Below, piece by piece: positions 1,078 through 52,632 of a stretch of 53,149 nucleotides of DNA. Every line of letters starts with the position of its first letter. The first letter of the stretch is position 1. A program made the position numbers and the translations under genes. The notes beneath the pieces were generated by a model. That model made no database searches and was not told where the DNA came from. It was given only the letters and a program-made list of their open reading frames with translations. Source of the stretch: Rhizaria sp. SCN 62-66 (lineage: Eukaryota); contig MEDY01000239.1 of NCBI GenBank assembly GCA_001724265.1, positions 1 to 53,149 on the forward strand. Reading direction: 5' to 3'.

Positions 1078-3234
1078 CTTGGCCTCTCTGCTGCAGACGC
1101 ACCTGGATCTCGCCAGGTCCCAGTTGAGCCTGCCTCTGTGGGCTCAAACCCCCTGTCTGGCGATCGAGATCGCCGAGCACGGCACGGTTTACCTAGACCG
1201 GCTGGTCAAGTGGAGCCTGGGGCAGAGGCCCGACAACATCAACTGGCGGCCCTCGGCCACAAACGCCAACAACGTCAACATCAACAACAACAGCATCAGC
1301 AGCAGCAGCAGCAGCAATGCTAGCGCTAAGGGTAACCGCAAGAGTAGTGCGAATGGGACCACCTCGAGTGCAAGTGCTGATGCGGGGACGGACGCGAATG
1401 CGAGCTCGAGTGAGGTCATTTCATCCCTCCGGCTGCAAGTGCAGCAAGAGTCTCTGTCACTCCAAGCCCAGTCACAGCGACAGTCTCAGTCACAATCGAG
1501 TGCAAGTGCGAGTACCAATGCGGCGCCGAGCCTGACTGCGTCGCTGCTGACGCCGCCGGCGTGGCGGCCGCTGTTGCTGCTGGTGCCCGTGCGGCTGGGC
1601 AGCGACCGCGTCGACCCTGCCTACGTCGAGTCCCTGCTCATGGTACGGCTCCGACAAGAAACTTGGAACGAGTATATCTTGCTTGAATGAACACTCACTA
1701 ATACTAAACTGAGACATAACTTAATATCGTTGGTATATCTAATTAATCTAACAATATCTTCCTCACCGTGTAATATCTTTCTATATTCATTCTGGCTTTT
1801 GTATCTTCTACCCCACTCCAGTGCTTCCATTCGCCCGTCTTCGCCGGCGCCATCGGCGGCCGCCCCCGCGCCTCCCTCTTCTTCACCGGCGCCCAAGACT
1901 CTCGGCTGTTCTACCTCGACCCGCACACGGTGCAGCCCGCGGTCAACGCCAGCGCCATGCATGCTAGCGCCAGCAGCAACAGCCTCAGCCTCAGCGCCCA
2001 CGGCCACTCGCACGGCTCGAGCGCTGCGAGTACCGGGGCCGCTGCGAGTGGGCCGGGGCTGGGGAGCTACTTCTGCCCCACAGTGCAGTCGATCGACGTC
2101 GGGGGTACGCTATATATTCACGAATATATCATCGTAAAATATCGCACTGATACAGTTTGATCTCGTTCAAAGTACTCTTGACTTCAAATATGTGACTTTT
2201 CTAACTCCCCTTTTCATCCTGCCTTGCTTTTTCTTTCACTTGCGCTTTCCCTCTCGCGTCATCGCATCACAGCCATTGACCCCTGCCTGACTCTGGCGTT
2301 TTACCTGCCCTCTGAGGACGCCACAATGCAGTTCTGGGCCTTTGCCAAGACGATGATGGCCATCGCGGCCTCCCAGGCGAGCCCCCGCCCCAACCATAGT
2401 AACTCCAGCGCTGCCGCCGGCGGCGACGGCTACTATAGCGGGGGCGGGGGCAGCCGGTGGCTCTCGGTGCTCACGGCGGAGGACCTGGCGCCCAAGCTGT
2501 TCGGCTCAGACTCGGACTCGGACTCTGAATCTGACCGCAGCCGCGGCCACGGTCGCGGCCATAGTGAAAGCGACTGTGGCGGTGACCGCGACAGTGACCG
2601 CGCCAGCAACTGCGACTTCAACTCAGAGACTGAAACTGAGGCGGGCTCCTCTGATGTTGATGGCGGCGACGACGACGATTTTTTAGGAACCGGCACGGAG
2701 AGCAACAACTACAACGACGGCGACGACGATGACGACGACGACGACGACTATAGTGACACGGCAGGCCCTGATACTGAGGCTGAGTCAAGTGGCTTCCTGA
2801 ACCGCGGAGTCAGCCGCAAGCAGAGCAACAACAGTCACGATAACAAGTGTGATTGCGTTTGCACCTGCGCCAACACCAACACCGCGGCCGCCGCCACTGC
2901 CGCCGCCACTGCGTCTGCTGCTGTAGATGCTAAGGCCGTTGGCAGTGGTGGCAGCATTGGTCTTGGCGAGACTGATTCCGACTTGACTCTGGAATCGGAG
3001 CCTGAGACGGAGCCCAAGCGGCCCGTTATCACCCCTGTCAACACGAGCGCGAATGTTAGCGGCTCTAATGCCAGTGCCAGTGCGAAGGCTAAGGGCAAGG
3101 GTAAGGGTAAGGGTGGCCGAGCTAAGCGCGGCAGTGTAAGTGGGCTGGCTCGCCGCAAGTCTAAAGGGGGCGGCGTCGTAGGGATGAAAGGCAGCGACAA
3201 TGACGACGACGACGATGGGTTTGAGCTGATCTAA
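2..3234 (+). CDS. ATG4: ATG4 cysteine protease (peptidase C54), 5'-partial; exons <2-1642, 1822-2104, 2273-3234
   Basis: Catalytic Cys motif TSDAGWGCMLRSAQMLLA; also GKGAGEWYGPS and PLLLLVPVRLG. Splicing GT-AG introns 1643-1821 and 2105-2272 restores GAIGGRPRASLFFTGAQDSRLFYLDPH (catalytic Asp/His) and AIDPCLTLAFY. Ends DDGFELI-TAA, resembling the C-terminal LIR of ATG4s. The usual N-terminal WxTYR motif is not in the window. Confidence 0.93.
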
Positions 3235-4110
3235 TCGGCGGCATTGTGCGACCCGTAAAGCTACCAACGGTCCGTCGGCAATGACGGTGAGATGATTGAC
3301 TCCAAGCTAGTCTTGTTTTTTCTTGATACTTTAAGTATGATGTGAACAAGAAGAACAGTCAAGAATCTCAATGGGAATGAATGAATATGTTTGATAATAC
3401 GTTACAAAGATAGTTGTATAGATGTAGATATCGGTTTGTATGACGAATGTGATCCCAATACACCAATTACACCACGATTTTATGCCAAATACTCGTACGT
3501 TACTCGCTGCTCCGATCTCATCCTGCTTCAGCCACCGGAGCGAGCGCATTCACGGCTGGCACCACGTGATGACAACAAACACTATCCAGTTCACTCAGTG
3601 CTACCGATACAACAGTCGCAGTAGCTGTTGCTGTGTCCGAGTCGTCGTCGACAAGACTGTTGCGGTCACCTGTGCCGTCATTGCAATTTAATTACACATG
3701 TGCTTGTATGGAACGTGACGTTGATATGACGCAAAATAGTCATATCATAATATATACCGCAACAATAAGTCATTTTACGCAATGCAACACGAATTCGAAC
3801 TCAGTTCCAGTCGCAATAATCGCCCTCAGTGCAGTCAGCTCCACTCCTGAGTCGTCGTTTCGTAACAACGAACAACAGCAGTATGGGCTGTATGGAGTCA
3901 ATACAAAAGCGCCAGCGACAGCCCCTTACTTCCCATTGCAAGATTACGAAGCAGAAATTCAATTCAGAGAGTGTTTCGCGTTACAAAAGCAGAGCAATTC
4001 ATGATGATGCATTGCATAGAGCGGTAGAGCATTTCATGTTCATACTGTTTAGGGGGGGTTGTGAAGCAAAATGGAATTTTATCGCGGGGTTTGTGGGGAG
4101 GTTGTTGGAT

Positions 4111-4689
4111 TTACCGGGCAGCCTTGGCAGCACGCTCGATCTCGCCGCGCTTCTTGATAGCGAAGGAGTTGAGGTTGTCGGAGGCGCAGTTCATGATCTC
4201 GTCAGCGAGGCACTCAGCAACAGACTTGAGGTTGCGGAAGGCCGAGGCGCGGGCGCCCTGGGTGATGAGGTACACGGCCTGGTTGACGCGACGGAGGGGG
4301 GAAACGTCGCACGCCTGGCGGCGGACAACACCGCCGGAGCCGATGCGGGTGGAGTCCTCACGGGGGCCGGCACGGGAGANGGCAAGGATCTGGATGGGGT
4401 TCTTCTTGGTGACGAGGGCGACGATCTCAAGGGCCTGCTTGACGATGCGGATGGCAAGGAGCTTCTTACCGGTGTTGCGACCGTGGAACATCATCGAGTT
4501 GACGAGGCGCTCGACGACGGGGCAGGACGCCTTGCGGAAGGCACGCTTGGCATAGCGGCCAGCAGTGTGGGGAGCGTAGACGGCGCGCTTCTTGATAGTG
4601 ATGTAGTCGACCAGGGAGAGGTCGGGGACGGAGACGTCGTCCAGGGAGAACTTGTTGAAGAGGCGGACCTCGTTAGCGAACGTAGCCAT
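4111..4689 (-). CDS. RPS5: 40S ribosomal protein S5 (uS7)
   Basis: [79 protein letters not shown]. One N at 4380, and the region appears about 2 codons short. Confidence 0.98.
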
Positions 4690-5407: not shown

Positions 5408-8113
5408 TCAAACGTAGACGCACATGTTGTCGAACTGGTCGATATACGAGAGATAAAAAACCGCCGACACGGCGAGCGCGCCGAACTGAGCGAGCGCCCA
5501 CAGCGACAGGTGCACTCGAGAGTCACGCGTTACCGTGTACCGCGTGAAGCACGTGCGCACGTCGTGGCACACGCCGCTGTCGTCACGGTCGTCGTCGCAG
5601 TCGTCGCCGTTGCCACCGTTGGTGATGATCGAATTGCACCCACACAGCTGCTGCTGTTGTTGCTGTTGGCGCGTGTTCGAGTTGCTGTAGTTGCTGTTGT
5701 TGGTGGTGCCATTATCATTGCGACCGTTGTCCTCACGCTCTTGCAAAGCATCAGCAACGTTGTGAGCATTAATACTGCTGCTACTGCTGCTGCTAGGCAT
5801 TGCCATATTGATAGGATCAGTTGCATTATCAGCATTCGCAGCTGAGGCAGTAGCGTTGACGCGACTTGCATTCGCGCTCGCGTTTATGCTGTGGTGGTCG
5901 CGGATGTCGTTGTCCACGTCAATGTTACTGTTCTTCACAGAGTCCGTAAAAACGGTTCTGTAAGGACTCATTTCAATCTCAGCCGTTGTCGCAGCCGCCG
6001 TCGCAGCCGCCGTCGCAGCCGCCGTCGCAGTCTCGGCCGTCGCCGCCGCAGTCTGGGTCGCTGCCGCGGGATTGTTGCCGTCGCTGCCTTCGTTCTGCTG
6101 CTGCTGCGGCGGCGGCAGCGTCATGGGCTCAAGCCCCAGTCGCATCCGCCGCTCCTTTTCCCTCTTTTCCCTCTCCGCCTGCCGCGCCGTCGCCCGACCG
6201 ACTGCCACGGCCGCCGCCACCTCGGCCGCGCGCCGCCGCAGCCGCGCCGCGCCCCTGCTGCGGGCCGCCTCAACGACGGCGCAGGGGACAATGCACAGCA
6301 GCAGCGCCAGCGCCAGCGCAAGACAGGCGGCACGCCAGCGCAGCCAGCGGCGCCACGGCCACTGGGACTCCGCCTCGTAGTCGAAAGGGGTACTTAGAGG
6401 CGCGACGGCGTGGAGTGTAGAAAGCGGGGCCGCTAGGGAGGTAGTACTGAGCGAACTTGCGTGCGTACTTGTGGCAGCCATAGCAGAGGTACTGAGTGCG
6501 ACAACGCGACGGCTTAGCTTTGTCACAAGTTCCGGCACCAATGAAAACATGTCGTTGGCGGTGTTCATGTTGATCGCTGTCATGTCTGCTGCTTTGCTGC
6601 TGTTGCCGTCACTGCTGCTGCCAATGTTGCTGTCAAGTTCGCTCACAGTCTTATCCGTCGCCGCCACAAGCAAGGTCTGAAACAGCGACGCGAGCGGAAT
6701 ATAGGCCGCCGCGGCTAGATTATGACAGCGCGGGTGCACCCTGAAGCTCACAGTCCCCAGCAACCCCAGTGCCACTGCGGCCGCGACGCCGACCGCGGCG
6801 GCGGCGTCCGCCAGCGCCGCCGGTACCGGCGCCGGCACTGTCGCCGTCGTTGCTGGCGCAGAGCCGGCGTCGGCGTCAATCGGGGGCAGGGCGAGGGGGC
6901 GGCGGAGGGCTAGGCGCGCTGTGAGAGCGAATAGGAGATGCAGCAACGCGGCCGCGGCGAGAAACAGGGCGAAGAAGGGGAAAACGGCGGGGGCGGAGCC
7001 AGCGCGGCAGAGGATGTGGACCGCGGGGGCCGCCGTCGACGGCGACGGAACCGCCGCGGCTGCTGCTGCTGCTGCTGCTGCTGAGGTACCAGCTGAGGCG
7101 AAGGGTTGAGGAGGGACGTGCGACCTGTGGACACTGTTCGCGACGTTATAACGACTACTGCTGCTGGTGACGGTGCTGCTGTAAGAGAGCGCGTGCGAGT
7201 GGGGACTGCGGGGGCTGGTGGGGCCCCGAGGGCCCGGGGGCGCGGCCGCGACCGCGAGGGTGAGCTCAGTCGCAGAGGATAGGTACGACGAGACAGCGTT
7301 GGTGGACTCGTTGGATTCAGCGTCCGTAGCCTCGGGGGGCGCGAGAACGAGCGCGCTTGCGTTGTCGTCATCGTCCTCAATGTCGTTGTTGTTGAGATTA
7401 GATGCGCGACATTGGGGGCAGGTATAATAGAGCCGCGGCCTGACAGGAACAGAGAAAACAACAGCACAAAGTTGCAAGGGAATGAGTTAGAGGCGAGAAG
7501 AACAGATAAACAACACAATTTCCTGTTATAAAATAACAAATTGCGCACATATCACGTGGGTTTTATCGAGGAGTAAGATATGTGCGATATATCCTTGCTT
7601 TAGTCATCGTCATGTGTGGACGCACCTAGGTTGCTGACAGCAGAAGAAGAGACATGCCACAGCGGCACTGCGCGCGCGCGCCCGGTGCAGGCAGCCGCAG
7701 CTGGCGCAGCAGCGCGGCGGGCGCTCCTCGCGGACGAGCTCCACGCCGAGGCCGAGGGCGTTGGCGGGAGAGCGGGTGACGAGACGGCGACCGCGAAAGC
7801 TGCCGCAACATGCGCTGTTGCTGTTGCTAGTGTTGGCGTCAGCATTAACGTTGTTATTGTTGCTGTTGCTCATCATGCTCGCAAAACGGCTCGGGCTATA
7901 GTGGACCTCCGCGTTGTTACCGCTGCCGCCGTTGCCGTTGCCACTTTGCCGCGCCTTGTACGCCGTGATGCAGGACGACACGAAGGCGATGGTGAGTGCA
8001 GTCAACACCAGCGCGGCGTAGGCGATGGGAATGAACGAAAGCGAGAAGACCGAGGTCACGACAACGGGGGACAAAGACGCAGCCGTGGCGGCCGCGGAGG
8101 ACGGGCACGGCAT
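5408..8113 (-). CDS. Frag1/DRAM/Sfk1-like multi-pass membrane protein; exons 8113-7626 and 7439-5408
   Basis: The phase-2 intron 7625-7440 (GTGCGT...TCAG) joins the two ORFs in frame (CQQPR/PRLYYTCPQC). TM1 FIPIAYAALVLTALTIAF, later LGLLGTVSFRVHPRCHNLAAAAY and C-terminal WALAQFGALAVSAVFYLSYIDQF follow the family pattern. Stop TGA. Confidence 0.65.
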
Positions 8114-8751: not shown

Positions 8752-9828
8752 TCAGTACTGGCTGCCGCCAGCAGCGGGCGTCACCGCGGCGGCCGTGCCG
8801 GCCGCAGCCCTGCGCTGGGCGTCCTTGGCGGCCTTCTCTTCCCTAGCCCTGGTTTCCTCAGCCTCGCGGGCCGCGAACTCGGCCTCCTCCTCGGGGCTCC
8901 ACTTGCGCGCGACCACGCGCGACTTAACATACAGATGTTAGGCCGCAGCAGTGAGTCAGCGAAGGAGGGAGCAAAGAAAATATGACGTGCATGTGTACGT
9001 GCGTGTGCACAGAACAGCAGAGAGTGCAGAGCAGTCGAACAGTACAGCAAACGCACAGAGCGAGGTGTGCATACAGGACAGAAGAAAAAAGAAGAAGATG
9101 ATATAACATGGTTAGTGACACAGATAAGTTTAAAATAAGATACATTCACATATATGATATGTTACTACACAATGTGCCGTGTGATTAAGTCTCGATCGCG
9201 CGATACATGTTGCGAATGTTTTGAATCGACGAGTCTAAATGCAGACGTACGGCTTCGAGCGCCTCCTGGACGCGCGCAACCTTCTTGGCCACGGCAGCGG
9301 TGTGCTTCTCCTTGGTGTCCTTGGACTTGGCCAGCTGCGCCGCGCGCACCTCAGCCTTGTGCTTCTGCAAACACGTGAGCAAACAAACAGTCAGTGGGAT
9401 GCAAGTGAGATACAAATGGCGGCAACAGAAAAGCGCCTATGGCGGCCGATCAAGAACAAAATAACACAAAAACAGAGTATATAGTTGCGATGTGCGCAAT
9501 AAACGCAGTGATATAACGCGAAACGTACGTCGCGCTCGGCCTTCTCCTTCTTGCGCTGCTCCTTCTCGTCGACGGTTTTCTCGCGCCTGTCTGCGCCCGC
9601 GCCGGCCGCGGGCTCGGCCGCCTTGCGAGGCGCGGCGCGCGAGCGCGAGTTCATGCCGCCCACGTCGCGCTGTAGCGCGGGGGACGAGTGGAACATGCGC
9701 CGCGCCGCGCTCGCGCTTGCAGCCGCAGTCACGGAGTTGAAGGCGGTGAGGCGAGCGGGCACAGCAGCAGAGCTGGTGACGAGACGGTGGGCCAGAGCGG
9801 CGACGCTGGAGCGAGAAGAGGCAAGCAT
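8752..9828 (-). CDS. Small Lys/Glu/Ala-rich protein with a predicted mitochondrial presequence; exons 9828-9529, 9364-9251, 8922-8752
   Basis: N-terminus MLASSRSSVAALAHRLV...ARRMFHSSPALQR is presequence-like. Two phase-0 GTACGT introns (9528-9365, 9250-8923) give a continuous frame ending GGSQY-TGA. Family not recognised. Confidence 0.7.
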
Positions 9829-10350: not shown

Positions 10351-11394
10351 ATGTCGATGAAGTCCCTGCTGACGCGGCTGGCGCCTCACGGTCTAGACCC
10401 GCTGCACTGCATCCTGCTGGCCACGGTCGCCGGCACAGTCACCTTTATCGCTCTCCTACTCAAGTCCAAGCGCGGCTCTAGTGCCGGCTCTACCAAGAGC
10501 GCTGCGACCTGCTACGACGCGTCGATGCCGGCCATGAACACGACCCCGGGCTTGCCGCTGCCGCCGCCGCTGAGCCCGAACAACAACGAGACCTTCCTCG
10601 CGGGCGCCATGGGCTGCGGTCGTGCCCATGACGCGGCCAAACTTCTCGACTTCCTGCTCACTGTCGGCTCGCTCAAGACGCAGAAGCGGACGGGCTGGGT
10701 GAATCACGGCGTGGAGCTGCCAGAGTCGATCGCGGACCACATGTACCGCCTCACGCTCATGGGGCTCACGCTCACCGACTCCAACGTCAACACGCTGCGC
10801 GCGGCGCTCATCGGCGCCGTGCACGACCTGGCGGAGGCCGAGGCGGGCGACATCACGCCCACGTCCGTCTCGGGCGTGTCCAAGGAGGAGAAGCACCGCC
10901 TCGAGGTCGAGGGGCTCGCGCGCATGTTGGCCAACTTTTCCGCCGTGCCCACGGTGCAGGCGCGCGTGCGCCGACTCTGGGAGGGCTACGAATACGCGAC
11001 CACTCCTGAGGGCAAGGTCGTCAAGCAGCTGGACAAGCTCGAGATGGTGATCCAGGCGTTCGAGTACGAGCGCGACCAGCGCATGCGGCTCGACGCCTTC
11101 TTCGACAGCACGCGTCACTCATTCACGCACCCGGAGGCCGCGGCGCTGCACCGCGAAGTGCTGCGCCGCCGCGAGGAGCTGCACCAGCAGTGGGAGACCG
11201 AGGCCGCCGCGCCGGGCGGCCGGCCCGTGCCAGCCGCCACGACGCCGCACGACGGCAGGGACAAGGCCGAGGCCAGGGCCAAGGCGGCCGCGGAGGCGGC
11301 GGCCGCGGCGGCTGAGGCGGCGGCGGAGGCAGAGGAGAAGAAGGCTGCGACTGCGAAGGCAGAGAGCGACGATGTGCTTCGTCAGAGGAAGTAA
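10351..11394 (+). CDS. HDDC2: HD-domain 5'-deoxynucleotidase (HDDC2/YGK1-like) with an N-terminal hydrophobic segment
   Basis: LKTQKRTGWV, ESIADHMYRL, VHDLAEAEAGDITP, KEEKHRLE, VKQLDKLEMVIQAFEYE. First ATG at 10351; stop TAA. Confidence 0.92.
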   Translation: MSMKSLLTRLAPHGLDPLHCILLATVAGTVTFIALLLKSKRGSSAGSTKSAATCYDASMPAMNTTPGLPLPPPLSPNNNETFLAGAMGCGRAHDAAKLLDFLLTVGSLKTQKRTGWVNHGVELPESIADHMYRLTLMGLTLTDSNVNTLRAALIGAVHDLAEAEAGDITPTSVSGVSKEEKHRLEVEGLARMLANFSAVPTVQARVRRLWEGYEYATTPEGKVVKQLDKLEMVIQAFEYERDQRMRLDAFFDSTRHSFTHPEAAALHREVLRRREELHQQWETEAAAPGGRPVPAATTPHDGRDKAEARAKAAAEAAAAAAEAAAEAEEKKAATAKAESDDVLRQRK

Positions 11395-11768: not shown

Positions 11769-14700
11769 TTAGATTTTCGGCAACGGCACCGGCTGAATAC
11801 GCTGCATCATAGCATGCAGACGCTCGCTCTCGCCGCCCACACCAACAACATCATCATCGTCCTTATTGTGGCTCGAGCGAGTGTCGGTGTTGGCGCTGCT
11901 GTTTTGACGCGCTTTGCGATAGCGCGCGCGCGCGGCGGCGGCGTTGGCCGCAACCGTGTCCGCGGCGCGGGCGAAAGCGCGCGCAGCCAAGGGGGTGGCG
12001 AGGCCGTCGGCAGAAGGGGCGCAGAGCCCGGACCAGCTGACGGACTCGGCGGCCGCGAGGGCGGCGGCGGTGAGCGCGACGGGAGGCGTCGGAACCACCG
12101 AGTCGCCGGCGTTCACAGACGCCGCCTTGCGAGCGCTCGGGCCCGTCGTCGTATTGCTGTTGTTGCTCGCATCAGCACCTTTGTGCGCGTGTGTGAGCGC
12201 GCGTGCAAGCTCTTTCCCCAAGGGCGGAATGATCGGGTCAACAATGTCAGTACCACGACGCTCGTGTTTGTCACTGCTCATACTCAGAGCAGCGTAAGTC
12301 GAGTCACTGGTTCCCGCGCTCGCGTTGCCGCCCGCAATCGCAACATTACCGCTCTTGTCATGCTGTTGCTTGCTCTCGCTCTCGAAGTTAAGCCGCATCG
12401 CGAAGTCTAGCCGCGTGCGCACGGCGGCGACGAGCGCGGGCACAGCGACGGGCTCGGCCCTGGCGAGCAGCAGCAGCAGTTGGCCCACGCGGTCGCGCAG
12501 CGCCTGCGGGTAGTGGAACGGGGACAGCAGAGGCGTCACGGCCGCAGCGATTACCGTCGCCGCCGTCGCCCCCACCCCGGCCCCGCTGGCGCTGGCGCTG
12601 GCGATGTACGCGGTGCTGCTATGAGAGCTGTCGGTGTGCGTGTTGGCGATGGGAAGCGAGAGCAGCTCGGGCAGCAGCGCGGCTTGCGTAAACGCGACCA
12701 CGACGCCGGCAATAAGTTTGGCCGCCAGAGTCACGCTACTCGCACTCGTGCTGCTGTAAGTCTGATGACCAGCAGTGCTGGTGCCGATGTAAGTGTCGGT
12801 GAACCGCGCGCGCGCCTCGGCCAGCACCGCCAACAGCAGCGGCAGCGCCTCGGCGGCGAAGCGGCCGGCCAGGAAGCGCGGCGCGGCTTCGAGTGCGCAT
12901 GATAGCGCGGGCAGCGCGGCCGCCGTCGCGGGGGTCACGGGCCGGTGCGTCAGCGGCAGAAGCAGTGAGGGCCAAAGAGACGCGAGGAGAGGCAGCAGGC
13001 GGCGGTCCCAGCGGGAGGGTAAGGGGGTACTTACATCATGCGTCTGAGATGCACCGTCGTCGTCATAATCGTCATCACTGTCACTCTCATCACTCTCACT
13101 GCCATCACCACTCTCGCTATGATGAGCGTTGTTGTCGTCGCTGTCAGTGACTTCCTCCACATAGGCGGATGAAGTGCTGAGGTCCTTAGCAGATGTCTTT
13201 CCGCCCATATTCTTCTCATCGTCAGCACCAGCACCAACATCGGCGGTATAATCCTTCGTGCTGGCAGCATCATTCGCACTCACGACCCACTCTTCGTCGC
13301 CATACTCCATCGTCGAAAAGGCATTCTTGGACTTCTTCGCCCCCGCGGCCTTCCTCTCCTCCTCCGTCATCACCACCCCGCCGCCCAGGCCGCCGCTGCC
13401 GCCGCTGCTGTCAGTGCTGGCGTACGCCCGCAGCGCCGGCGCGGCGCGGCCCGCCGCGGCGAGCGCGGTGACAACAAGGCGCGCGGTGGCGAGTGCAGCG
13501 ACGACGACGGCGGGCACTGGCCACGCGAGGAAGGGCTGCACGTGCGAGAGCACACGCACCAGTACGGCCTCCTCCAGCGACGCGCCGGGGTCTTCGTCGT
13601 CGTCGCCGTCGTTCGCCACGCCATCAGCGTCCGCGTCAGCGGCAGCGTCGGCGGTAGCGGCAGCTTCCTCCGCAGCAGCGGCATCGAGCCCTTGCTTGCG
13701 CAGTTGCCTGATCTTTCGCTTGCGCGCCGCCGCTTTGTCAGCAGCGATGATGCCTTCGAGGCTTCCGTCCAGATCGGCGTCCTTTGCCGTCGAGCGCGAC
13801 TTGCGCTGGGTCTTCGCCTTGGAAAGCGCGTGCTTCGCTGCCCCCAACCCGCCCATCTTGACACCATCCATAGGATCCACCTCCCCTTCCTCGTCATCGC
13901 CGTCTAAAGCACTGCTCTTACTCTTACTCTGAGTCTTGCGCTTGCCTTGAGTACCGCGGATCTGCTTCGACTCCGCGAGCAGCGCCCACCACTTCTGCGC
14001 GATGTCTGCCGCGCTGGCGCCGCCGCGCTGCGCCGAGCTCAGCAGCGCGGACTTGGCGCGCGCGGTCGCGGCGGCGCGGCTGTGCGTCGCGGCCGAGGCG
14101 GCCAGCGCGGCGGCCGCGGCGGCGGCGGGGGGCAGCGCAGGCAGCGCGAGGAGCAGCGCGGGCTGCTCCGAGACGGCACCGGCAGTGGCGCAAACTGTAC
14201 CAGAGCTGGCAGCGTTCCTGCCGTTGAGAGGCGCATCCTCGTGCCACGGCCACAGAGGGCTAGCAGCGCTAGAGCCGGCGTCAGTGAAACCACTAACACG
14301 CGACTCGCCACCATCGCTCGCGACGGTAGTCCCTGTCTTCGCAGCAGCAGCGGAGAGCTGGAGTTGTTGTTGCTGCTGCGCGTGCTCAATCGCGTTGATG
14401 TGCGTGATCTTGCCGCCCTGGAGTGTAAGTGCCTTGGGTTGCAGACTAAGTACCCTGGGATTAGCCTCCCCGGGCGCTGCGTGGGCCCGCTCAACCTCGT
14501 CCACAGCCACGACAACCGCGGCACTTAAACCAGTGTAAGTAGCTGCGGAGGCGCCGCTGCCGCCCGTGGAGAGACACGGCACAGCAGTGGCGGACGTTGC
14601 GGCAGTAGCGGTGGCGGCGTTCGCGTCAGCCGTGGCCGCTGCGGAGGCCGACACGTACGGAATGCACACGACCCACTTAGACTCGTGTAAGGGGTTGCCG

Positions 14701-17700
14701 GCATCAGCGCCATTGCTGTGCTTGCTGCTGTTGTTGCCGCTGCGGGCGCTGTTGAGATTGCTGCTCTTGGAGACTGTAAGCACGCGCCGGTACACAGCCC
14801 TTACAATCGCGCTGACAAGGTCTAAGTACACCAGCACACCCTCAGACGCACTCACATTCACGCTAGCGTTCGGACTGGAGCTCGCTGTCGCCGCCGCCGC
14901 TGCGACGGCCGCCGCGGTGCTCATGCTCTCCAGCACCTCTCCCAACAGATCTTTGAGCGCGGGCACCAACTCTGGCCCCGCGGCAGCCAGGTCCAGCGCG
15001 GCCCGCAGCAGCCGCGGCAGCGCCGCCGCCGCCGTGGCCGCCGTGGCCGCCGCGGCAACCGCGGTGGCGGCCGCGGCGGAGGCGGCGCGCCAGTCGGTCA
15101 GGGCGCGCGCCAGCGACACAAACGCGCCGGCGCCGCTGTTCGTCGCGACAACGCTAGTGCCCGTGCTCGTGTCTGCGGTGGAGGGCGAGGAGGCGGATTG
15201 GCTTTGCTGCTGCTGCGAAGACGCGGCTTGGCTTTGCGCGTAGGCCCTCATGGCGTTTAGGTAGGCAGCGCGCACTTTGACGAGCGCTAGCTGTACGGCA
15301 CCATCAAAGTCATCCTGCTGTTGTTGCTGCTGCTGTTGTTGCTCAATGCTCGCCGAAGTCAGGCCGCGACGACCTAACTTCCTGACCTGACCAGCAACGT
15401 GCGCGACGAGGTAGTCAGCGTTGTGCGCAACGAGCAGGTCCGTGCGGCCCTGGGGCGCACCGGAGCGCAGCGCGAGGCGGGCCAGCGCGGCGGCCGCGGC
15501 GGCGCGCGGCGCCGGGTGCGGCGACGCCAGGCGCGGCAGCGCGAGGGGCAGGACGCGGGCCAGCAACGCGGGCGGCAGCGCGGACGCAGAGAGCGGGGCC
15601 AGACACGAGGCCGCGGAGGCGACGAGGCGCAGCGCGTGCGTGTGCAGCAGCAGCAGCCGATGCTGGCGGAGCGACGCCGGGGGCAGCGCCTGCGCCTGTG
15701 GCTGTGTCTGCAGTGCGGGGGCGAGGAGGTCGCTCGCGGAGGCGCCGCTGTTGATGGCCCGGAGGAGAGTGAGTGCGGCGACGGCCGACGCGGGCGTGTG
15801 CGCAGGCAGGTGCCACAGGGAGGACTGGGTCAGGGTCTGCAGCGCTGTACTTAGACTGGATGTGAGTACCTCGGAGGGCGGACTCGTGGGGTCGAGGCAC
15901 CAAGGGTACTCATGCTGCTCAAAGTCGTTGGCGACATCGTTGTCACTGTCGCTGTCGTCGTCGCTGTGGTCGCCGCGGCTGCTATCCTCAGTCGCCGTGT
16001 CAGCAAATTCAATGCCGATGTTGGTGTTGGCGATCATGTTGGCGTTGAGATCATCAAACGGCGCAGTGAAATCAGTGTTGATGTAGTTGAGGTCGTTGTT
16101 ATAGGCATTGTAACTGAACTCGGGATTATTAGCACTTGCGGTTGCAGCAGCCGCCTCAGCGCGAGGGTTCTCTTTGCTGCTCGTAAGACTGCGAGCCGAG
16201 GGGATTTGCGGAGGCAGCAGTGTAAACAGCGATGTAAGGGGCGCGGCGTGACTTCCGACCGCGGAATCGGCAAACTCGCCTGCCACCGCGGCCACAGCGG
16301 CCACAGACACACTATGGTGACCGTCATTGCGGTTCGCAGTCGTGTCATAGTTGCCGTTAGTGAGAGAGAGCAAGAGAGAGTTAAGGCTGTTGTTGCGATC
16401 GACGGCAACCTCCGCAAGCACCGCTGCTGCTTCATCTTCCTCATTAGCGTCTAAGATGGTGCCCACACCGACACTGGATGTTAGTGCTTCCTCAGAGATC
16501 TGCCCCCACTCCTGCTGCACACGCACACCCAGCACGAGCTGGTTCAATACAACGACTGATTCTGACGCGTAGCCGTCGGCCTCAGCGGCGGCCACGGCGG
16601 CGGCCACGGCAGCGCTCGCGGCACTGCCGCTGCCGCTGTGACCGTGGGCGGCGGCCGCGGCGGCCGAGCGGCTGCGCAAGCCGTGGCTGCCGCTGCCGTT
16701 CGCGGAGATGCCCATCGACTCGATCAAAGTCAGGGCGCGCTCGGACAAACCGGGGGGGAGCTGTCGGCTAGAGGTGGAGTTAGAGCTATGATTCCCACTT
16801 GCAGTAACATTCGGAGCGGCTGAGCTGGAGCTGGAGCTGGAGATAATCCCTGCGCCAGAGCTGGTGGTGACGTCGATGACAGTGCCAGAGCCATTATCAG
16901 GATCAACATTGCTGCTGTTGCTGCTGCTCTGCGTGAACGTAAGCGCCTAAGGTCGAATCGCACTCGCGTCGCCGGTCCCTCTTACGCCGGCGGCGTCCGC
17001 GGGGGTACTTAGATCCCCCGCAAGCCCGCTGCTGACGATGGCGCCCCGGGTCGCAACGACCGTGGCCACGCCCGTAGTCAGCGCAACCTCGGCCCAGCCG
17101 GCCACCACGGCCGCGGCGCCGGCGCCCGCCCAGGCAGCCAGCGCGGTGGGCAGCAACAGCAGCAGCGCGGCGGCCTCGGCGTCGGCCGCCAGCGCGGGCG
17201 CCAGGGCCGGGAACGGCGGCAGCGGCAGCTCGTAGTCGGCGTCGGCAGCACCCTCACTGTTACCGTTCCTGCGGGCGCTATCAGGGGTGTCGGAGGGGAC
17301 GGAGCGGTCGAAAGTTAGGCCGCCCCTCACCCCCAGCCCACCGCTCGCACCGGAGTTATTGGAGCCCGTGGCGCCTGTGCCCGTCGCCGTCGTGCCCGCG
17401 GCCGAGGAAATGAGCCCCGGTGAGACTGAGCCTGGCGCCAGTGCGAGCAGCTGTGACAGCGCGCGCACCAGCGCAGGGAACGCAGACAGCAGAGTGTAGG
17501 CGAGCGCGTTGCCGTACGCCTCGCGCCGCAGCAGGTGGTCTTCCCGATCTTGCTCATCGGTGGTATTGCCGCTGCTGCTGCTGCTGTTGCGGTGACGACG
17601 GCCTACCTTCCCGACGCGGCTTAACTTGGTCCTGCCGAGCATGGCGATGCTGGCGAGCAGCAGCCGCAGCGCCCATGCCTGTTTGGCGGCCGACGCCGTG

Positions 17701-20700: not shown

Positions 20701-21397
20701 CTGCCGTTACTATCCCCAGAGACAGAGCCAGAGCCAGCGGCAGAGCTTGTACTGCTATAATTGTTATTATTGTTGTTGTTGACTGTGGTGGAGAGGAAAA
20801 ACGCAAACGCGGCCGCGAGCGCCTCGAGCGCGGCGGCGACAACCGCGGGCACGAGCAGCGGCGGCAGCAGCGCGCGGTCCAGCAACACGCGCGACACAGT
20901 GCCGAACAACGGGTCGAAGAGGGAGGCCGCTTCGGGGGGCGGCAGAAGCAGCAGCGATTCAGCCTCGGCTGCAGTCATAGCGCCACCACTGGCACTGGCG
21001 CTCGCAGTTGCAGTTGCAGCTGCTTTGGCACGAGGTGCGAGCGGCGGCGGCGCCGTTGCGGCGAACTGGAAGTACCCCGCGATCGCGGTGAGGGCCTCCG
21101 TGGCCGCGTGGGCGAAGGAGGTGCTCACGTTGAGCCAGTGGCGCTGCTGCAGCGCGCGCTCCTGTGCCTGCTCCTGCGCGCTCATCACCACGCTGATGCT
21201 CACGCCGCTGCTGCCAGCGCTCGGACTGCTCGCATTGGCCCCGGCGTTAGCGCTGCTAGTGGTGGTGTTGTTGTTGTTGATATTGTTATTGGCCATGTGG
21301 AAGGCTGTTGCGGCAGTGCGCAGCTAGAGATACTGTTGCGACAGCGAGTGGAGCGACTGAGAGATAAACTGGGCAGCCACTGAGGTCAACTCGAGAC

Positions 21398-21441
<44 letters not shown>

Positions 21442-21970: not shown

Positions 21971-23166
21971 ATGATCGGCCCCGCACGTCAGGCGCCACTG
22001 CCTGCACCTCCGCTGCCACCCACCGTTTCATCGGCCTCGGCATCTTCGGCGCACTCTTCCGCTTTGCGCGCCGCTGACCCACATGCCCCGCATCGCATCA
22101 CCCTTGTTGCCCGCGGCGCACCGCGCGGCATGACGGCCGTGCCCCAGGACGAGGAGGAAGAGGAGGAGGACGGCAGTGCTCGCTCGGCACGGGCCCCAGT
22201 TCCCAACCTGAAGCTCAAAGGCATCGACAGTACGTCTTCTATCACGCGCTAATTAAGGCACCTCGAATTTAATTTGAAGTGTGCGTTCGTCCACTTTCTT
22301 GTCCATCCGCTCACCAGAATTTTGTCATTTTCCCGTGTTTTGTACGTTGTTAAACCTGCGTAGTTTTGAAGCAACCTGGCGTAGACGTGCACACCAAGGC
22401 CATCATCTTCTTCCACACGCTGCCGATGCCGCTGCTCGCACAGATCACCGACACCTACGGCGTCTACACCACAACGGCTCTGACAACAGGCCTCGTGCTC
22501 TTTGCGCCCGTCTACCTCCTTTTCGCCCTCGCCAAGGTGTACCTGGCGTTCCACCACTACCTGCTGCCGACCGCGCTCGCGCTGCTGTCCTCCGACGCTG
22601 CCGCGGCCGCCGCCGCCTCCCCGGCGCCGCCGCTGCCCGCCGCGCTGGCCCCGGTGCCCGCGCTGCTCGTGATCACGCTGCTGTGTGACGGCGCCGCCGC
22701 GCTGCTGCTGGGCATCGCCGCGGGCAAGCGCTGGCGCGCCGGCGTCGCGCTCGCCGTCGCCGCCGCCGCGGTCGCGCTCACGGTTACCCCGGCCCCGGCC
22801 GCCGCGTTCGCGGCCAGCGGCGGCCAGTTCGCGCACCTTGGGTACGCTGCGCACGCCCTGCTGTGGCCCGCAGCCGCGGCCGTGGCGGGGGCGGCGGCGC
22901 TGGCGGCCAGCCAGGCGCACCGCGCGGTGACCGTGAGCAGCAGCGACTGCGACGGCGGCTGCGGCGCGGGCTGCCGGTGCGTGCGGGGCGGGGCGGCGCA
23001 CCCGGCGGTCACTATGGAGGAGGCGGGGGCGGCCGCGGTGGCGGAGACCGTGCGGCGCGCCGACGCGCGGTTCGAGGAGGAGCAGCGCGAGCGCGAGGAG
23101 GAGCAGCAGCGGCGCGAGCGGCAGGCCCGCGGGGTCGACGACGAAGACGATGATTACGGAATCTGA
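21971..23166 (+). CDS. Hypothetical multi-pass membrane protein; exons 21971-22229 and 22364-23166
   Basis: The phase-1 intron 22230-22363 (GTACGT...GTAG) joins LKGID/ILKQPG. Several hydrophobic segments, a CDGGCGAGCRC cluster and a Glu/Arg-rich tail; stop TGA. The start could alternatively be the ATG at 22130. Confidence 0.7.
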
Positions 23167-26323: not shown

Positions 26324-26362
<39 letters not shown>

Positions 26363-38718: not shown

Positions 38719-40323
38719 TTAATAGTCTTCCTCGGAGTACTGCACGAAGTGCAGCGTGGGGTCCTGCCACGACTCCTGCTGCGTCTTCTTGTTGCGCCAG
38801 CCGGGCAGCCCGCGCGAGTCGACCTGCGTGACCCAGTACTTGCGGAACTCGTAGGGCACGGGGAACGGCTTGTGGTGGGCCAGTGCGCGGAAGAAGGAAA
38901 GGGACATCGCGGGGTCGAATAAGTTAAGCCGCCGGACAAGCTCGCGGGCCTTCGCACGCATGTGGGGGTCAGACGATCTATACGAGATATAAAAAAAATG
39001 CAAGATGAGACATACAAGTTAGTGAGGTAAATAATGACTACACCAAAAAAATCTATTTTTCACGCTCAATATGAACAAGTTCAAATGCGCAATTGTGCAT
39101 TTGTGCGGCGTGTGATGCACGTGTTACGTACTTAAGGAGCGCGGCCGAGTGCCGCATCAGCCCCGCATAGACCTCGGCCTTGTCCTCCTCGATCGCGGCC
39201 ATCGAGTACCGGTTAAGGAACGCTGTGCCGACGCCGATGTCGACCTCGCTGTGCGGCGAGATGGTGGCGGTGCCGTCGCGGTCCTGGGCGCCGCCGTCGC
39301 CGTAGCGGAACCCGGGCGGGTTGAGGCAGTGCCACAGCGGGTCCGTGCCCACCGACTCAGGGTTGCGGCCGCAGTCCGAGGCCGAGTCGAGCGGCCGCAG
39401 CCAGAGGCGGACGGCGGCGGAGCGATGCGCGGCCAGCACGGGGATCAACGGGACCGGGAAGGCCAGCGACTCGGCGAGGGGGACGCCGGGGGCCGCGGGG
39501 GTGACGGCGAGGGACACGGTTAGCGTGCTTGTCGTCGCCGTCTCCACAGTTCCAGTCGCGCTCGCATTCGCAGCGGGGGAGAGACTGCTGGACTCTGAAG
39601 GCGCCGCGGTGGCAGCGGCGGCGTTTGCGTGGTCAGTTTGAGTGGTGTCCGGACCCGCCGCGCTGTTACCGCCAGTGTCCGCCGGGGGCAGAGTGGGGCT
39701 GAGGGGGCTCACAGTCGGGGAGGCTGGGGTCGCGGGCACTGTGAGAGCCAGCGAGTGCAGCTCTGAGTGACCGTGGGCGTGACTGTGGGAGTGACTGTGC
39801 GAGGTGCTCACAGTCGCGGCCTGACCGTGGGCAGCAGCAGCAGGAGCGCGAGTGCGACTCTGAGAGTTGCTAGAGCGGCGTTGAGTTGCGACGTCAGAGT
39901 TCGTCATTTGCTGCAGCTGTTGCTGTTGCTGCTGTTGCGGCTGCGGTTGCAGAGGCATGGGCTCCGTTTCAGTCTCAATCTCGACGGTATATTCAATGGG
40001 AGTGCTTAAATGAGCATGTGAGTTGTGCGTGTTGTGGTTTAAGTACCCTTGCGAAACTAAGTAGTTCTCCGCATCCGCGGCCGCCGACTGAGTGGCGGCC
40101 GCGATCGCTGCCGCCGCGATGTAGGCCGCGTCCTCCTCATCGTCCTCGCTGTTGATGCCCGCGTCGTCGCTCATAAAAGCCGCCTTGTTGCGGCCGACGA
40201 CGCGGCCGCCAGCCCCGCTGTTTGCCGCTGCCGCTGCCGCTGCTGTTGGGATGCCTGTGGCGTTGACGCGGCCACCGACGACAACATTGCCGTGACTCAT
40301 GTTTGCACGCGTGCTCGCATTGC

Positions 40324-40357
<34 letters not shown>

Positions 40358-46820: not shown

Positions 46821-46851
<31 letters not shown>

Positions 46852-47206: not shown

Positions 47207-47238
<32 letters not shown>

Positions 47239-47621: not shown

Positions 47622-47674
<53 letters not shown>

Positions 47675-47831
47675 TGCCGCTGCCGCCAGCGCCAACACCG
47701 CGGCCGGCAGCAAGGCCGTCGTGGTTGGCGGCCGCAAGGCTGTGTGTTATGAGGGCGTCTGCGAGCCCGTGGCGGCCAGCGTCGAGGCGTGGGGGCGCGT
47801 CGCCAAGAAGGCGCTTGTGTCATACACCTAA
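43292..47831 (+). CDS. SRRT: SERRATE/ARS2 RNA-processing factor; exons 43292-47329 and 47475-47831
   Basis: ARS2-like motifs in order: MLSFHDYL, FYSKHKGENWYAERY, RRM (VRGVPP...PGFVRLWLA...RTVYVLF), YLLHVHSYAFY, zinc finger FQCVLCAKMLTSAVFAVRHVLTVH. Phase-0 intron 47330-47474; stop TAA. An acceptor-like site just upstream of the ATG may indicate an earlier exon. Confidence 0.85.
47622..47686 (+). repeat. (GCC)n poly-Ala tract in the last ARS2 exon
   Basis: Long GCC run followed by GCT/GCC variants. Confidence 0.9.
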
Positions 47832-48168: not shown

Positions 48169-49482
48169 TCACTCCTCATCGAAGTACATACCCGCGTCGC
48201 CACCAGCAGCCCAGTCACCGCTGCCGCCCTCGTCGTCCTCCTGCTCCTCCTGCTGGCCCCGCAGCACCGCCGCCGCGACCTCGGCCTCGGACATCTCCAG
48301 CACGCGCGCCTGCGCGCGCCGCAGCTGCAACTCCCCATCCTCGCCGTCGACAGCAGGCTCAGCATACACGCCACCACCGCCGCTGCCGCGAGCCGAGTCA
48401 CCGGAACCCGCGCCCGCGTCGGGCAGAGACGCCTTGTGCGCAGCGCGCATGGCCGCAATGCGGGCCTTGGCTTCCTCGTCATCGCTGCCACTCTCACTGC
48501 CACTCAAGTAGGCCTCGTCCCCGTTCGCGTCGACATCGATGTGCCTCTTGTCTCTATCAGCGCCGGTGCCGCGGCTGTTGTCAATGTTCGCGTCGTCGTC
48601 GACCTCGTTCGTAACGCCGTCGTCGTAGTACATGTCGACATCTTCGTCGTCGTCGCCGCCATTCTGATCATTGGCGCTGATGCTTGCGAAGTGACTCCGC
48701 TTCACTGGGGCATCATTGTCATTCTCATCGCCGTCACCGTCGTCATCGTCGTCGCCCTCGTTCACGCCGCCGCCGCTGTCGCTGGCGTCATCACCGCGCA
48801 GCCGCTTGCGCCTGTTCTTCTTCTTCATCGCCCGCGCGGCCCGCGCCACGGCCTCCGCGCGCTCCTTCTCCTGCCGCACCCGCTCCAGCCGCTCGGCGAC
48901 GCTCTCCGCGGCCTTGCCGCCGCCCGCCGCGCCCTCGGCGAGCCGCCGCACGTGATGCGCAATGCGCGCGCGGACGTCGGTCACGGAGGCGCGGCGCACG
49001 TGCATGCTCACGCCCAGCGCTTTCTGGTGCTTGCGGCCGTTGATGTGCGCCAGGTAAGCCTGCGAGTCGGAGAGGATGACGTCGCAGACGGCGCAGTGGA
49101 AGCCCGCGCGCGTGCCCTTGGTCACCGCGAGGGTCTTGCCGACATTAGCGTAGAGGTCCAGGCGCGCGTCGCGAGCCGACAGCAGCCCGCGCGGGGCGGC
49201 ACTGGCGGCGCCGGCGGCATTGCCCGCAGCCGTGGCGGACTAGGCCTCTTGCTGTTGGGCGGCGGCGAGGTACTGGGAGGTGTCCCAGGTGCGGCGGCCG
49301 ATGTTGTCGACAAACTACAGTGTGGGATTAACCGAAAAAGTGAAATCAGGAAGTAAGAAAGAATGGATGAGACTGGCGTGCGCTGAGTAATACGTAAGAG
49401 ATGAGGAGTGAAGAGCTTGGAACAGGGGCATGTAAAGCGACTGATGACGAGGGACCGTAATTACCTTTTGTGGCTGAGCCAT
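48169..49482 (-). CDS. ZMAT2: Zinc finger matrin-type protein 2 (Snu23); exons 49482-49465 and 49314-48169; in-frame TAG at 49242-49240
   Basis: Spliced product MAQPQK/FVDNIGRRTWDTSQYL...QQQEA*SATA...RGLLSARDARLDLYANVGKTLAV...GFHCAVCDVILSDSQAYLAHINGRKHQKALGVSMHVRRASVTDV follows ZMAT2 (RRKWDxxEY; LLxxRDxxVDL; GYYCxVCD; HINGKKHQ). Stop TGA. Confidence 0.9.
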
Positions 49483-49949: not shown

Positions 49950-51025
49950 ATGTCCAAGGTACGACCAACCCCCTTTCTTCCAGTCTTCATTCCCTTTTAT
50001 CACACTTTCCTCCTGCAGCACTCCTTCCGTTCCATGTTCAAGCACAATTTTTTACTGTTACACTTGTTCATTTGTTTTCATTCACTGCCGACCTACAGAT
50101 TGTCCAGCAGCGCCCCCGCAAGCACATGCCCGGCGCGGGCACCGTGCCCGCCGCGGCGGCCCCCACGCGCAACGCCTTCGGCGAGGCCCCGCCGTCCCGC
50201 GCCGCGGCCGCCGCCGCCGTGGTCGCGAGCGGCATCCCGCTCTCGGGCGCAGTCGCGGCGTCACTGCTGAGCCTGCCGCAGGCGACGCAGGACCTGATCT
50301 CGAAGGACTTCGCCGAGGTCGAGGCCGAGGCCTCTGTGGCCGCCGCCAAGGCCAAGGCCGCGGCCGTCGCGGAGAAGGCCGCCAAGCACAGTGGAACGTG
50401 GGGCGTGGTCAAGGTGACGAAGAAGGAGAAGAAGAAGCTTAAGCACGACCGCTTCATGGCGTACATCATGCCCGGCGACACGGCCAACGTGGTCAACGGC
50501 GTCCACATGCCCTCCAAGAAGGCCTCGGAGCTGTCCGTCGCTAAGAACAAGCTCGCCTTTACAGAGGCCTTCCACAACGCGCTGCCCTCGGCCGCGACGT
50601 TCGCTGAGGCCGCGGCCGCCGCCGAGGCTGCGCAGGCCGCCGCGCCGATGCTTCAGGGCAAGAGCGGCGGCGCGGCGGCCGCGCATGGCAAGAATGGGGG
50701 TGTCAACAGCGCCAACAACAAGCCCAAGACGGCGGCCGACGTGAGCATCCTGACCAACGCGACGCGCAAGCACGCGGCGCAGGACCGCGAGAAGTTCGGA
50801 CTTGTGCTCGCACACCCCGTGTTCCGCGCGAACCCGCTGGCGACGATCAAGGAGCACCTGCAGAACGAGATGGCGCTGGCGGCGCTGCAGCAGGAGAGCC
50901 TGCGCAAGCTCGCCGTGCCCGCGGCCCAGATACGCTCCGCAGGCGCCGTCGCCGACGCGGACGACGCGGGGAAGAAGAAGGTGTTTAAGCACCAGCTGGG
51001 CATGAACTCGTTCACCCGGAAGTGA
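49950..51025 (+). CDS. SLX9: SLX9/FAM207A-like ribosome biogenesis factor; exons 49950-49958 and 50099-51025
   Basis: MSK/IVQQRPRKH via phase-0 intron 49959-50098; KKEKKKLKHDRF and EKFGLVLAHPVFRANPLATIKEHLQN match the two conserved Slx9 blocks. Stop TGA. Confidence 0.8.
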
Positions 51026-51465
51026 GTGACCGAACTAGCGCACTGAAGTAGTTGTGTTGCGTACTTGTGACTAAAACGAAGCGGAGCAGACGTGTTCTGA
51101 ATATGGCCAGATGTGGTTTTATCAATACATTTTTAAGATTTAACATCACGACTTGTCGGCACATACACTAGTTTGGCGTTGTTTTTTGCTGTCATGACTC
51201 GAAACAACTCTCGTGTACGCTGTGATGTGCGCTGCTTGGCTGCCAACGGGTGGCTGGCCGAGGTTGTGATGTCGAATCGGGGCGTTGGGCATCACTTTCT
51301 GTTTTCAAAATAGCACACTCTGCGTCCGATAGTTGTGAATGTAGTTATTGGCCTACGTATTTATACACTGCGTTGATTCTATTTTCTTTTTTGAAATCCA
51401 CTCAAAGCTCATCTATGTCTCTATATGAACCTCTATTTTCTCCAACGGTCGGCTTCCGAACTCAG

Positions 51466-52632
51466 ATGAGCTTTTCTGCCTCGAGCAGCAAGGTACGCAT
51501 CCATTTCATTTTCACAGGAAAAAAACCCACTAATTTCACATATATTCGTGTGTTTTTCTTGTCAGTTGATTTATTTAACTACTATTTCAGTCATAAACCC
51601 GTTCAAGCAGACCACTTTCCCTAACCTCTCATCTCTCACGCAACCATCTTGCTCCTTTCCTTTTCATTCCCGCCATTTTAAACTTTTGTCCTGCGCACTG
51701 TCCTACCAACTTGACCGCAGGCGGTGTTTGCGCAGCGCCGGTCGACCGCGCGCCCGTCGGCGGGCGGCAAGCCCTCCGCGGCGTCTGAGGAGCAGCTGGA
51801 GGAGATGCGCGAGGCCTTCAAGCTCTTCGACACCGACGACTCGGGCAGCATCGACCTGCGCGAACTCAAGGCCGCGATGCGCGCGCTGGGCTTTGAGGTT
51901 AAGAAGGACGAGGCGCGCCAGATGCTCGCCGACGTCAACAAGGAGCCCACGGATCAGATCACCTACAACGACTTCGTCGCCATGATGACGCCCAAGATGG
52001 TACGTGGAAACATGTAAACACTCTCCAAACAAAGTGGAAAACAAACGGAAAGCAACACCACCGTCATATTCTGGACAATGTCTAGTATTTTAACTGATAA
52101 CCGCTTATTATTTCTCACACATGACATGTTTTGCTTTTTTTTTTGTTCTGCAGGGCGACCGCAACTCCAAGGAGGAGATCATGAAGGTGTTCCGCCTGTT
52201 CGACGAGGACAACACCGGCTTCATCACCTTCCGTGCGCTCAAGCGCATCTGCCAGGAGATTGGCGAGGGCCTGTACGTCTTTACACTTGCAACACACATA
52301 CTCATGTTCATTGCTTCTCCTTTGCCACAGCAATCGAAGTGTTATTACATCTCTTTCGTCGTCCGTGTTTGACTTATTTTATTGCGTTGCCATGCTTATC
52401 TTCTCGTCAATATTATATTTTTCCTTTCGTTTGTTTGCCCTTTGCTGCGATTTGCCCGCGCTCTGCTTCGTTGCGCGCTGCGCGGCGCAGGACGGACGAC
52501 GAGGTACAAGAACTCATCGTCGAGGCGGACCTCGACGGAGACGGCCAGATCTCTTTCAACGAATTCTACCGGGTCATGAAAAAGCGCGGCGACAACCCGC
52601 TCGACGACTGGGACTCCGACGATGACGCCTAA
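51466..52632 (+). CDS. CETN: Centrin/caltractin; exons 51466-51492, 51721-51999, 52154-52272, 52491-52632
   Basis: [76 protein letters not shown]. Three GTACG...CAG introns with matching phases. Stop TAA. Confidence 0.96.

Follow-up and report, generated by a model that had tools for sequence, protein, structure and literature searches.

Does TAG still act as a stop codon in the organism from which this DNA derives? The stretch analyzed here (the window) is the 53,149-nucleotide contig C239 of the eukaryotic assembly G000 (34.9 Mb, 714 contigs); coding sequence is rich in GC, and introns are rich in AT. For its 14 gene models the initial annotation had counted eight TAA, six TGA and no TAG terminators, and every one of these codons could be verified. 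It was also right that 11 of the genes contain no internal TAG: the triplet stands in frame only in a TTI1-like gene (twice), a HELQ/POLQ-type helicase gene (three times) and the ZMAT2 gene (once). Based on the analyses below, we consider it very likely that TAG functions as sense and not as a stop. We propose that a flagellated, probably sainouroid cercozoan protist uses a nuclear code with UAA and UGA as stops and UAG as a very rare glutamate codon (probability about 0.78).

TAG at gene ends and inside genes

The caveat that the sample was small was apt, as the absence of TAG from 14 gene ends is not significant alone. Its probability is 0.10, 0.044 or 0.018 at an assumed TAG share of 15, 20 or 25%, and 0.17, 0.086 or 0.042 at the same shares for the 11 genes without internal TAG. 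TAG makes up 22% of the stop triplets in noncoding DNA here.

Terminator usage across the genome was examined with a Markov model specific to reading frame, in which all three stop triplets are scored neutrally; its first training frames had been allowed to run through TAG. The model was applied to the window and to most of about 0.89 Mb of G000 DNA (223,217 codons in segments). Sites with coding-like sequence upstream and no splice-donor motif were kept, which left 42 of 135 TAA, 42 of 126 TGA and 26 of 49 TAG. Noncoding DNA came next after 34 of the 42 TAA and 33 of the 42 TGA, but after only 2 of the 26 TAG, while coding went on after 3 TAA, 4 TGA and 18 TAG; the remaining kept sites were ambiguous. 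The probability of at most two TAG among 69 coding-to-noncoding sites is 3e-5 at a TAG share of 20% and 1e-3 at 15%. The avoidance of terminal TAG is thus significant because genome-scale data were added, the 14 ends of the window being too few.

Both TAG sites followed by noncoding DNA are weak: one terminates a short frame (about 55 codons) that scores as barely coding, and the other is located 5' of a kinase exon, its frame closing shortly afterwards. In a held-out stretch of 100 kb, noncoding DNA followed 2 of 3 TAA, 1 of 2 TGA and 1 of 4 TAG, the TAG case being marginal and within a TAG-dense, possibly decayed region; one TAG-TAA pair behind a donor motif had been removed by the filter. 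Over about 1 Mb, the coding-to-noncoding transitions come to 36 TAA, 34 TGA and three doubtful TAG. As regards a context-dependent code of the Condylostoma or Blastocrithidia type, in which TAG would be both stop and sense, no convincing terminal TAG was found over this distance, only the three weak candidates. We conclude that TAG is essentially not used as a terminator. Locus L177:2300-7100 (G000:C42:22-27 kb) contains a cluster of about six in-frame TAGs, spread over two short frames that encode no recognizable protein; these frames could be remnants of genes or belong to a mobile element.

Within genes, we counted 37 in-frame TAGs per 205,393 core codons (about 0.18 per 1000, or about 0.4% of glutamate-plus-TAG codons), a few of which probably lie in untranslated regions. 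In the window, the TTI1-like open reading frame carries one TAG (16947..16949, minus strand) between open frames of 1458 and 1725 codons, both sides being coding-like, and another near its N-terminus (21324..21326, minus) that may precede the true start codon. Two of the TAGs in the helicase gene (34230..34232 and 34740..34742, plus strand) are situated between the DEAD and Helicase_C matches, and the third (36063..36065, plus) is found within an RNA-run contig (run X2) that differs from the window only at 36206. The ZMAT2 codon (49240..49242, minus) comes after the conserved N-terminal motif and ahead of the zinc finger. Exon-internal TAGs were also found in eRF1, methionyl-tRNA synthetase (MetRS), a UBE2J-type E2, EFHB/CFAP21 and five kinases. 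In MetRS the codon sits between the two matched halves of the gene. For eRF1, the sole nearby GT..AG would excise 10 nt, and the TAG recurs in locus L171 with 0 mismatches over 1626 nt, although L171 possibly comes from the same sample.

Many other candidates were discarded. TAGs within Pfam matches of dynein (C660, C390), kinesin (C108) and a DEAD helicase (C40) were interpreted as intron acceptors; of 11 kinase TAGs, four lay at match edges in acceptor-like context and two were intronic, and all of these were dropped. Among 20 ABC_tran matches there was no in-frame TAG, and comparison of dynein paralogs gave no informative TAG site. Two single Gln-rich frames carry TAG far over the genome average, with three in L155:2281-3030 and two in L027:2404-3303 (both minus strand).

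A tRNA(CUA), an altered eRF1 and the residue encoded by UAG

Eight sites matched a search pattern with a CTA anticodon at class I spacing, and one of them is a real tRNA; a second search pattern gave no match. This tRNA(CUA) (G000:C84:76008-76080, minus strand) is 73 nt long, folds into a full cloverleaf followed by a T-run, and scores 58 bits in Rfam against a cut-off of 29. We found a single copy. Its best non-self match is the organism's own tRNA-Glu(UUC) with 47 of 73 positions, followed by Glu(CUC) and one Met(CAU) with 46 each. The tRNA inventory behind this ranking is incomplete: the Rfam search scored only 63 of its 506 candidates and did not pick up the CUA tRNA. Both Gln tRNAs fall outside its ten best matches. 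The first five acceptor pairs are identical to those of both Glu tRNAs, the T-arm is nearly the same as in Glu(CUC), and a single change separates the anticodons CUC and CUA. The anticodon loop reads C32-U33-CUA-A37-A38, with C38 in the Glu tRNAs; A36-A37-A38 is the isopentenylation motif that strengthens suppressors. ARAGORN labeled the gene "Pyl", but this label reflects the anticodon only; the cloverleaf is a standard one like that of tRNA-Glu. Judged by its sequence, the body of tRNA(CUA) is closest to the tRNA-Glu type, and the tRNA is putatively charged with glutamate.

One eRF1 gene was found (L061, G000:C63); two other search matches represent a single gene, which we take to be pelota. 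Compared with 120 homologs, all of which have T32 and G57, eRF1 carries T32S and G57S, and also T58K at a position that is T in 119 of 120; the lysine is shared only with the closest relative, P0009. E55, L69, S70 and the YxCxxxF motif are intact, and TAA follows the conserved C-terminus. P0009, a metagenomic eRF1 of 84% identity, has T58K but kept T32 and G57 and carries Val at position 107, and may represent the state before the code change. A metagenome scan for eRF1 loci of relatives returned four, one identical to G000 and three distant, without the P0009 locus. The G000 eRF1 itself contains one of the rare in-frame TAGs, in exon 2 at Glu107, with a possible feedback on termination.

T32 hydrogen-bonds the G of UAG and is replaced by G in Iotanema (PMC5304391). 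T32A is lethal in yeast and E107A halves read-through (PMC4381064), and T32A has been reported to move eRF1 specificity toward UGA (PMC3384315). It is plausible that the milder T32S would lose UAG and yet keep UAA.

Which residue does TAG encode? At position 107 of eRF1, the 120 homologs have E in 109, D in 10 and V in one, with no Q. The EFHB/CFAP21 column shows E in all five of the PDB alignments listed (of eight matches) and in a 68%-identical relative. Of the 150 residues in the UBE2J column, 96 are D, 17 E, 15 N, 10 S and one Q. The TAG of ZMAT2 stands opposite Glu in an ungapped alignment with human ZMAT2 and opposite Leu in a gapped one with yeast Snu23, that of kinase L069 opposite D in a paralog, as judged by eye (a PDB search with this kinase gave no match at E 1e-12), and that of the CaMK opposite E, A or D among CaMK paralogs. 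A crude combined score over six columns, with our own weighting, gave E 0.995, D 0.005 and Q near 0.

Several points weigh against the proposed glutamate code. Strongly conserved TAG sites number only three, and at weaker ones the TAG stands opposite Thr in the paralog of kinase L068, Tyr/Lys in the CaMK1 of the PDB and Gln in NEK1 for a NEK-like kinase. In the closest eRF1 relative, Val occupies the position of the TAG, and we therefore regard the column as relaxed in this lineage. The neighbors of the 37 TAGs fit those of CAT, CAG and CAA (log-likelihood -615, -617 and -621) far better than those of GAG (-641), and several TAGs lie within poly-Gln runs or Gln/His-rich contexts. A38 and a remodeled anticodon stem set tRNA(CUA) apart from the Glu tRNAs. 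The three weak TAG sites followed by noncoding DNA persist. Three RNA runs compared with 16600-36500 yielded short, fragmentary contigs, none of those listed bridging a TAG, and run X1 may contain DNA.

The Gln-like neighborhood and the Gln at the NEK1 site could be read as UAG encoding glutamine (the Iotanema type, NCBI table 15), or a mixture of Glu and Gln if glutaminyl-tRNA synthetase charges the CUA tRNA. The anticodon loop ending in A37-A38 fits this as well, and bacterial tRNA-Glu amber suppressors are partly mischarged with Gln. We nevertheless consider it unlikely. Although one weaker site aligns with Gln, the three best-conserved sites have Gln in 0 of 120, 1 of 150 and 0 of 6 cases, and acceptor stem and T-arm of the CUA tRNA are Glu-like rather than Gln-like. 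Poly-Gln contexts are expected from CAG>TAG transitions whatever TAG means, and we infer that the neighbor profile reflects this mutational origin, with Gln-to-Glu tolerated in low-complexity sequence. Leucine, inherited jointly with the sainouroid rhizarian exLh, which is probably of the same clade, would be another meaning of UAG, but an extremely improbable one: the conserved TAG columns are acidic, eRF1 retains L69, which is L69A in exLh, and in the CUA tRNA the variable loop is short and the acceptor stem resembles that of Glu tRNAs, no search having been aimed at a long-arm CUA tRNA. Finally, under the standard code TAG would merely be avoided at gene ends, and the internal TAGs would be explained by errors in the sequence, by nonsense alleles, by editing or by the ends of introns. 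That so many TAGs within Pfam matches were assigned to introns or their acceptors (in dynein, kinesin, DEAD helicase and kinase genes) and that no listed RNA contig bridges a TAG speak for it, and Guttulinopsis vulgaris likewise ends nearly all its genes in UAA (PMC5304391). Still, we strongly disfavor this reading, as exon-internal TAGs persist in eRF1, MetRS, UBE2J, EFHB, ZMAT2 and five kinases, the TAGs of eRF1 and HELQ recur in L171 and the X2 contig, a tRNA-CUA gene and eRF1 changes co-occur, and TGA is freely used as a stop.

A further alternative, compatible with UAG encoding glutamate as an early stage of it, is that reassignment is incomplete: tRNA(CUA) inserts Glu while eRF1 still partly terminates, TAG survives mainly in contexts that favor read-through, and the TAG of eRF1 itself acts as a sensor. 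A CAN codon follows 14 of the 37 in-frame TAGs, versus 6.3% genome-wide and 19.7% after CAG, and nine are followed by a His codon versus 2.2% genome-wide (P about 1e-7); CA follows 8.8% of out-of-frame TAGs and none of 67 TAA/TGA terminators. Positions +4 and +5 have been described as the most influential for read-through, with CAAUUA as the strongest signal (PMC7089771). The single tRNA(CUA) copy, the rarity of TAG, the mild T32S and the TAG within eRF1 point the same way. On the other hand, the context test was post hoc, the bias did not recur in the held-out 100 kb, where all 11 listed TAG sites lack a following CA, and a few of the 37 sites are probably untranslated. Moreover, HELQ would require three read-throughs, and TAG has not been kept as a terminator. 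We regard incomplete reassignment as possible, though rather doubtful.

The earlier interpretation thus holds in part. Reassignment of TAG to sense, with TAA and TGA kept as stops, is supported by genome-scale stop usage, TAG in essential genes, the CUA tRNA and the altered eRF1; the 14 window ends would not have sufficed. The preference for reassignment over leaky read-through is supported only partly: some residual termination at UAG is conceivable because TAG is extremely rare and 14 of the 37 in-frame TAGs are followed by CA, a bias that the held-out DNA did not repeat.

For the glutamate code, we propose the following origin. A duplicate of tRNA-Glu(CUC) would have changed C36 to A while still being charged by glutamyl-tRNA synthetase, and T32S, with G57S/T58K, would loosen the hold of eRF1 on the third-position G of UAG. 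With eRF1 weakened at UAG, tRNA(CUA) would then outcompete termination; UAA would stay a stop because the CUA anticodon cannot read it. Terminal TAGs would have been purged, and the spread of TAG into coding sequence would only be beginning (about 0.4% of Glu codons). In many cases TAG would have arisen through CAG>TAG drift, replacing Gln by Glu in low-complexity regions, and in some through synonymous GAG>TAG changes at conserved Glu sites. A wider picture, in which one tRNA-Glu-derived suppressor competes with a partly terminating eRF1 in an early-stage code with UAG=Glu only, TAGs are filtered by context, a feedback loop through the UAG at Glu107 of eRF1 sets UAG reading, and Sainouroidea underwent a second, independent UAG reassignment to a residue other than that of exLh, is speculative, and we would sooner expect it to fail in some part than to hold throughout.

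Gene ends and other features of the window

The ab initio coding model, neutral to all three stop triplets, found exons for all 14 genes. Pfam matches above cut-off identify ATG4, RPS5, HDDC2, HELQ, SLX9 and centrin (EF-hand); ZMAT2 is identified by a zinc finger match and a PDB match, and the matches of TTI1 and ARS2 are below cut-off. For the DRAM-like, membrane, WW-peptidase and 1952-amino-acid genes, the Pfam scan gave no supporting family.

The contig starts within a (CAA)n run (1-90) in the frame of ATG4 (Peptidase_C54), which is therefore cut at its 5' end and terminates with TAA at 3232..3234 (plus strand). The TAA of RPS5 (4111..4113, minus) lies immediately behind the conserved C-terminus, and this is the only one of the 14 ends that is pinned by C-termini of homologs; a single N is present within the gene at 4380. 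They are followed by TGA ends of a putative "DRAM-like" gene model (5408..5410, minus) and a small putative "mitochondrial" one (8752..8754, minus), and by TAA ends of HDDC2 (HD_3; 11392..11394, plus) and the TTI1-like open reading frame (11769..11771, minus). A putative membrane-protein gene model ends in TGA (23164..23166, plus). At 22178-22479, an RNA-run contig runs ungapped through its predicted intron, which may indicate unspliced RNA, library DNA or a wrong model. The 1952-amino-acid open reading frame, which has no Pfam family, ends in TAA (29846..29848, plus), the HELQ/POLQ-type helicase in TGA (38517..38519, plus) and the "WW-peptidase" model, whose large exon matches no Pfam family, in TAA (38719..38721, minus); three TAGs near the latter are intronic. 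The remaining ends are TAA for the ARS2-like gene (47829..47831, plus), TGA for ZMAT2 (48169..48171, minus) and SLX9 (51023..51025, plus), and TAA for centrin (52630..52632, plus).

The proteins of HELQ (30144-38519) and the TTI1-like gene (11769-21554) reach about 2700-3200 amino acids, swollen by long Ala/Ser/Asn/Gln-rich insertions, including one of about 570 residues between helicase motifs. The 9-mer TAAGTACCC occurs 12 times in the 53 kb window, counting both strands, but only four times in all other analyzed G000 DNA and not at all in 400 kb of contigs C4 and C9. It lies mostly within reading frames (TTI1, the 1952-amino-acid frame, HELQ, ARS2 and others), often in near-palindromic pairs, for example at 17934-17951, 19830-19842 and 46357-46370.

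Lineage and comparison with known codes

The presence of ten dynein heavy-chain loci, centrin and EFHB leads us to infer a flagellate, and the run that carries the window as RNA is labeled as an activated-sludge metagenome. The nearest relatives of RPS5 are environmental sequences, the cluster of one of which includes G. vulgaris. In an RPS5 tree of 36 of about 125 rows, the window protein and G. vulgaris fall into a 12-row clade with support of 100/97, and a quick 120-row tree recovered the same clade with G. vulgaris at 97. This suggests a placement in Sainouroidea (Cercozoa, Rhizaria) from one gene with long branches. The nearest named RPS5 (P0133) is filed in EukProt under a transcriptome of the dinoflagellate Yihiella yeosuensis; it is presumably a contaminant there, probably from a sainouroid-like protist, and was disregarded in naming the organism. 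A search of the ESM Atlas gave no match at >=0.9 and no taxonomic pointer. The small subunit rRNA gene (L084, G000:C706:4459-8903) is 4.4 kb long, AT-rich and very divergent, with several long intron-like insertions, and gave no classification. Sainouroidea include exLh, in which UAG encodes leucine, and G. vulgaris, which probably uses the standard code but ends nearly all genes in UAA and has almost no terminal UAG (PMC5304391). This near-absence may be a predisposing state.

The separation of UAG from UAA is rare in nuclear codes. Here, components that could only be predicted in the work on exLh occur together in one genome: a CUA tRNA, the tRNAs from which it would derive, and an eRF1 with a change at the residue that reads UAG. 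The codon is still very rare, so that the system looks like the early stage debated by the codon capture and ambiguous intermediate theories. A natural eRF1 blind to UAG that reads UAA and UGA is sought for genetic-code expansion, and annotation of the G000 genome under the standard code would truncate eRF1, MetRS and HELQ.

How does this code relate to those described? In exLh, as here, UAG alone is reassigned and only UAA and UGA terminate (56 and 15 there, 36 and 34 here), and both organisms probably belong to the same clade. However, UAG means Leu in exLh and was found 384 times in 71 genes, compared with Glu and about 0.18 per 1000 codons here; its eRF1 carries L69A instead of T32S/G57S/T58K, and its CUA tRNA was only predicted (PMC5304391). 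UAG encodes Gln in Iotanema spirale, Hartmannula sinica, Trochilia petrani and Protocruzia tuzeti (PMC5304391; PMC11687900). These codes also reassign UAG alone, and T32 of Iotanema eRF1 is likewise altered (T32G), whereas the present one involves Glu, a tRNA-Glu-derived suppressor and an unrelated lineage. UAG is read as Glu, by a tRNA(CUA) most similar to tRNA-Glu, in Oligohymenophorea sp. PL0344, but this ciliate uses UAA for Lys and has 10 CUA tRNA genes, while in our probable cercozoan UAA is a main stop and one such gene was found (PMC10553269). Peritrich ciliates and Blastocrithidia share UAG=Glu as part of UAR=Glu, so that UAA is also Glu there, with a dual meaning in Blastocrithidia, which additionally recodes UGA (PMC11687900; PMC12153298). 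In our data no in-frame TAA was seen at conserved sites; TAA terminates, being found after the conserved C-termini of RPS5 and eRF1 and before noncoding DNA at 34 of 42 sites, although no search was aimed at a tRNA(UUA). In the literature searched, mostly at the level of abstracts, the residues known for UAG where it is split from UAA are Leu, Gln and, as reported, Ser, with Glu appearing only alongside UAA=Lys; a code that has UAG=Glu and keeps both UAA and UGA as stops did not turn up. Each of the codes compared differs from the proposed one on a defining feature, either the residue assigned to UAG or the status of UAA.

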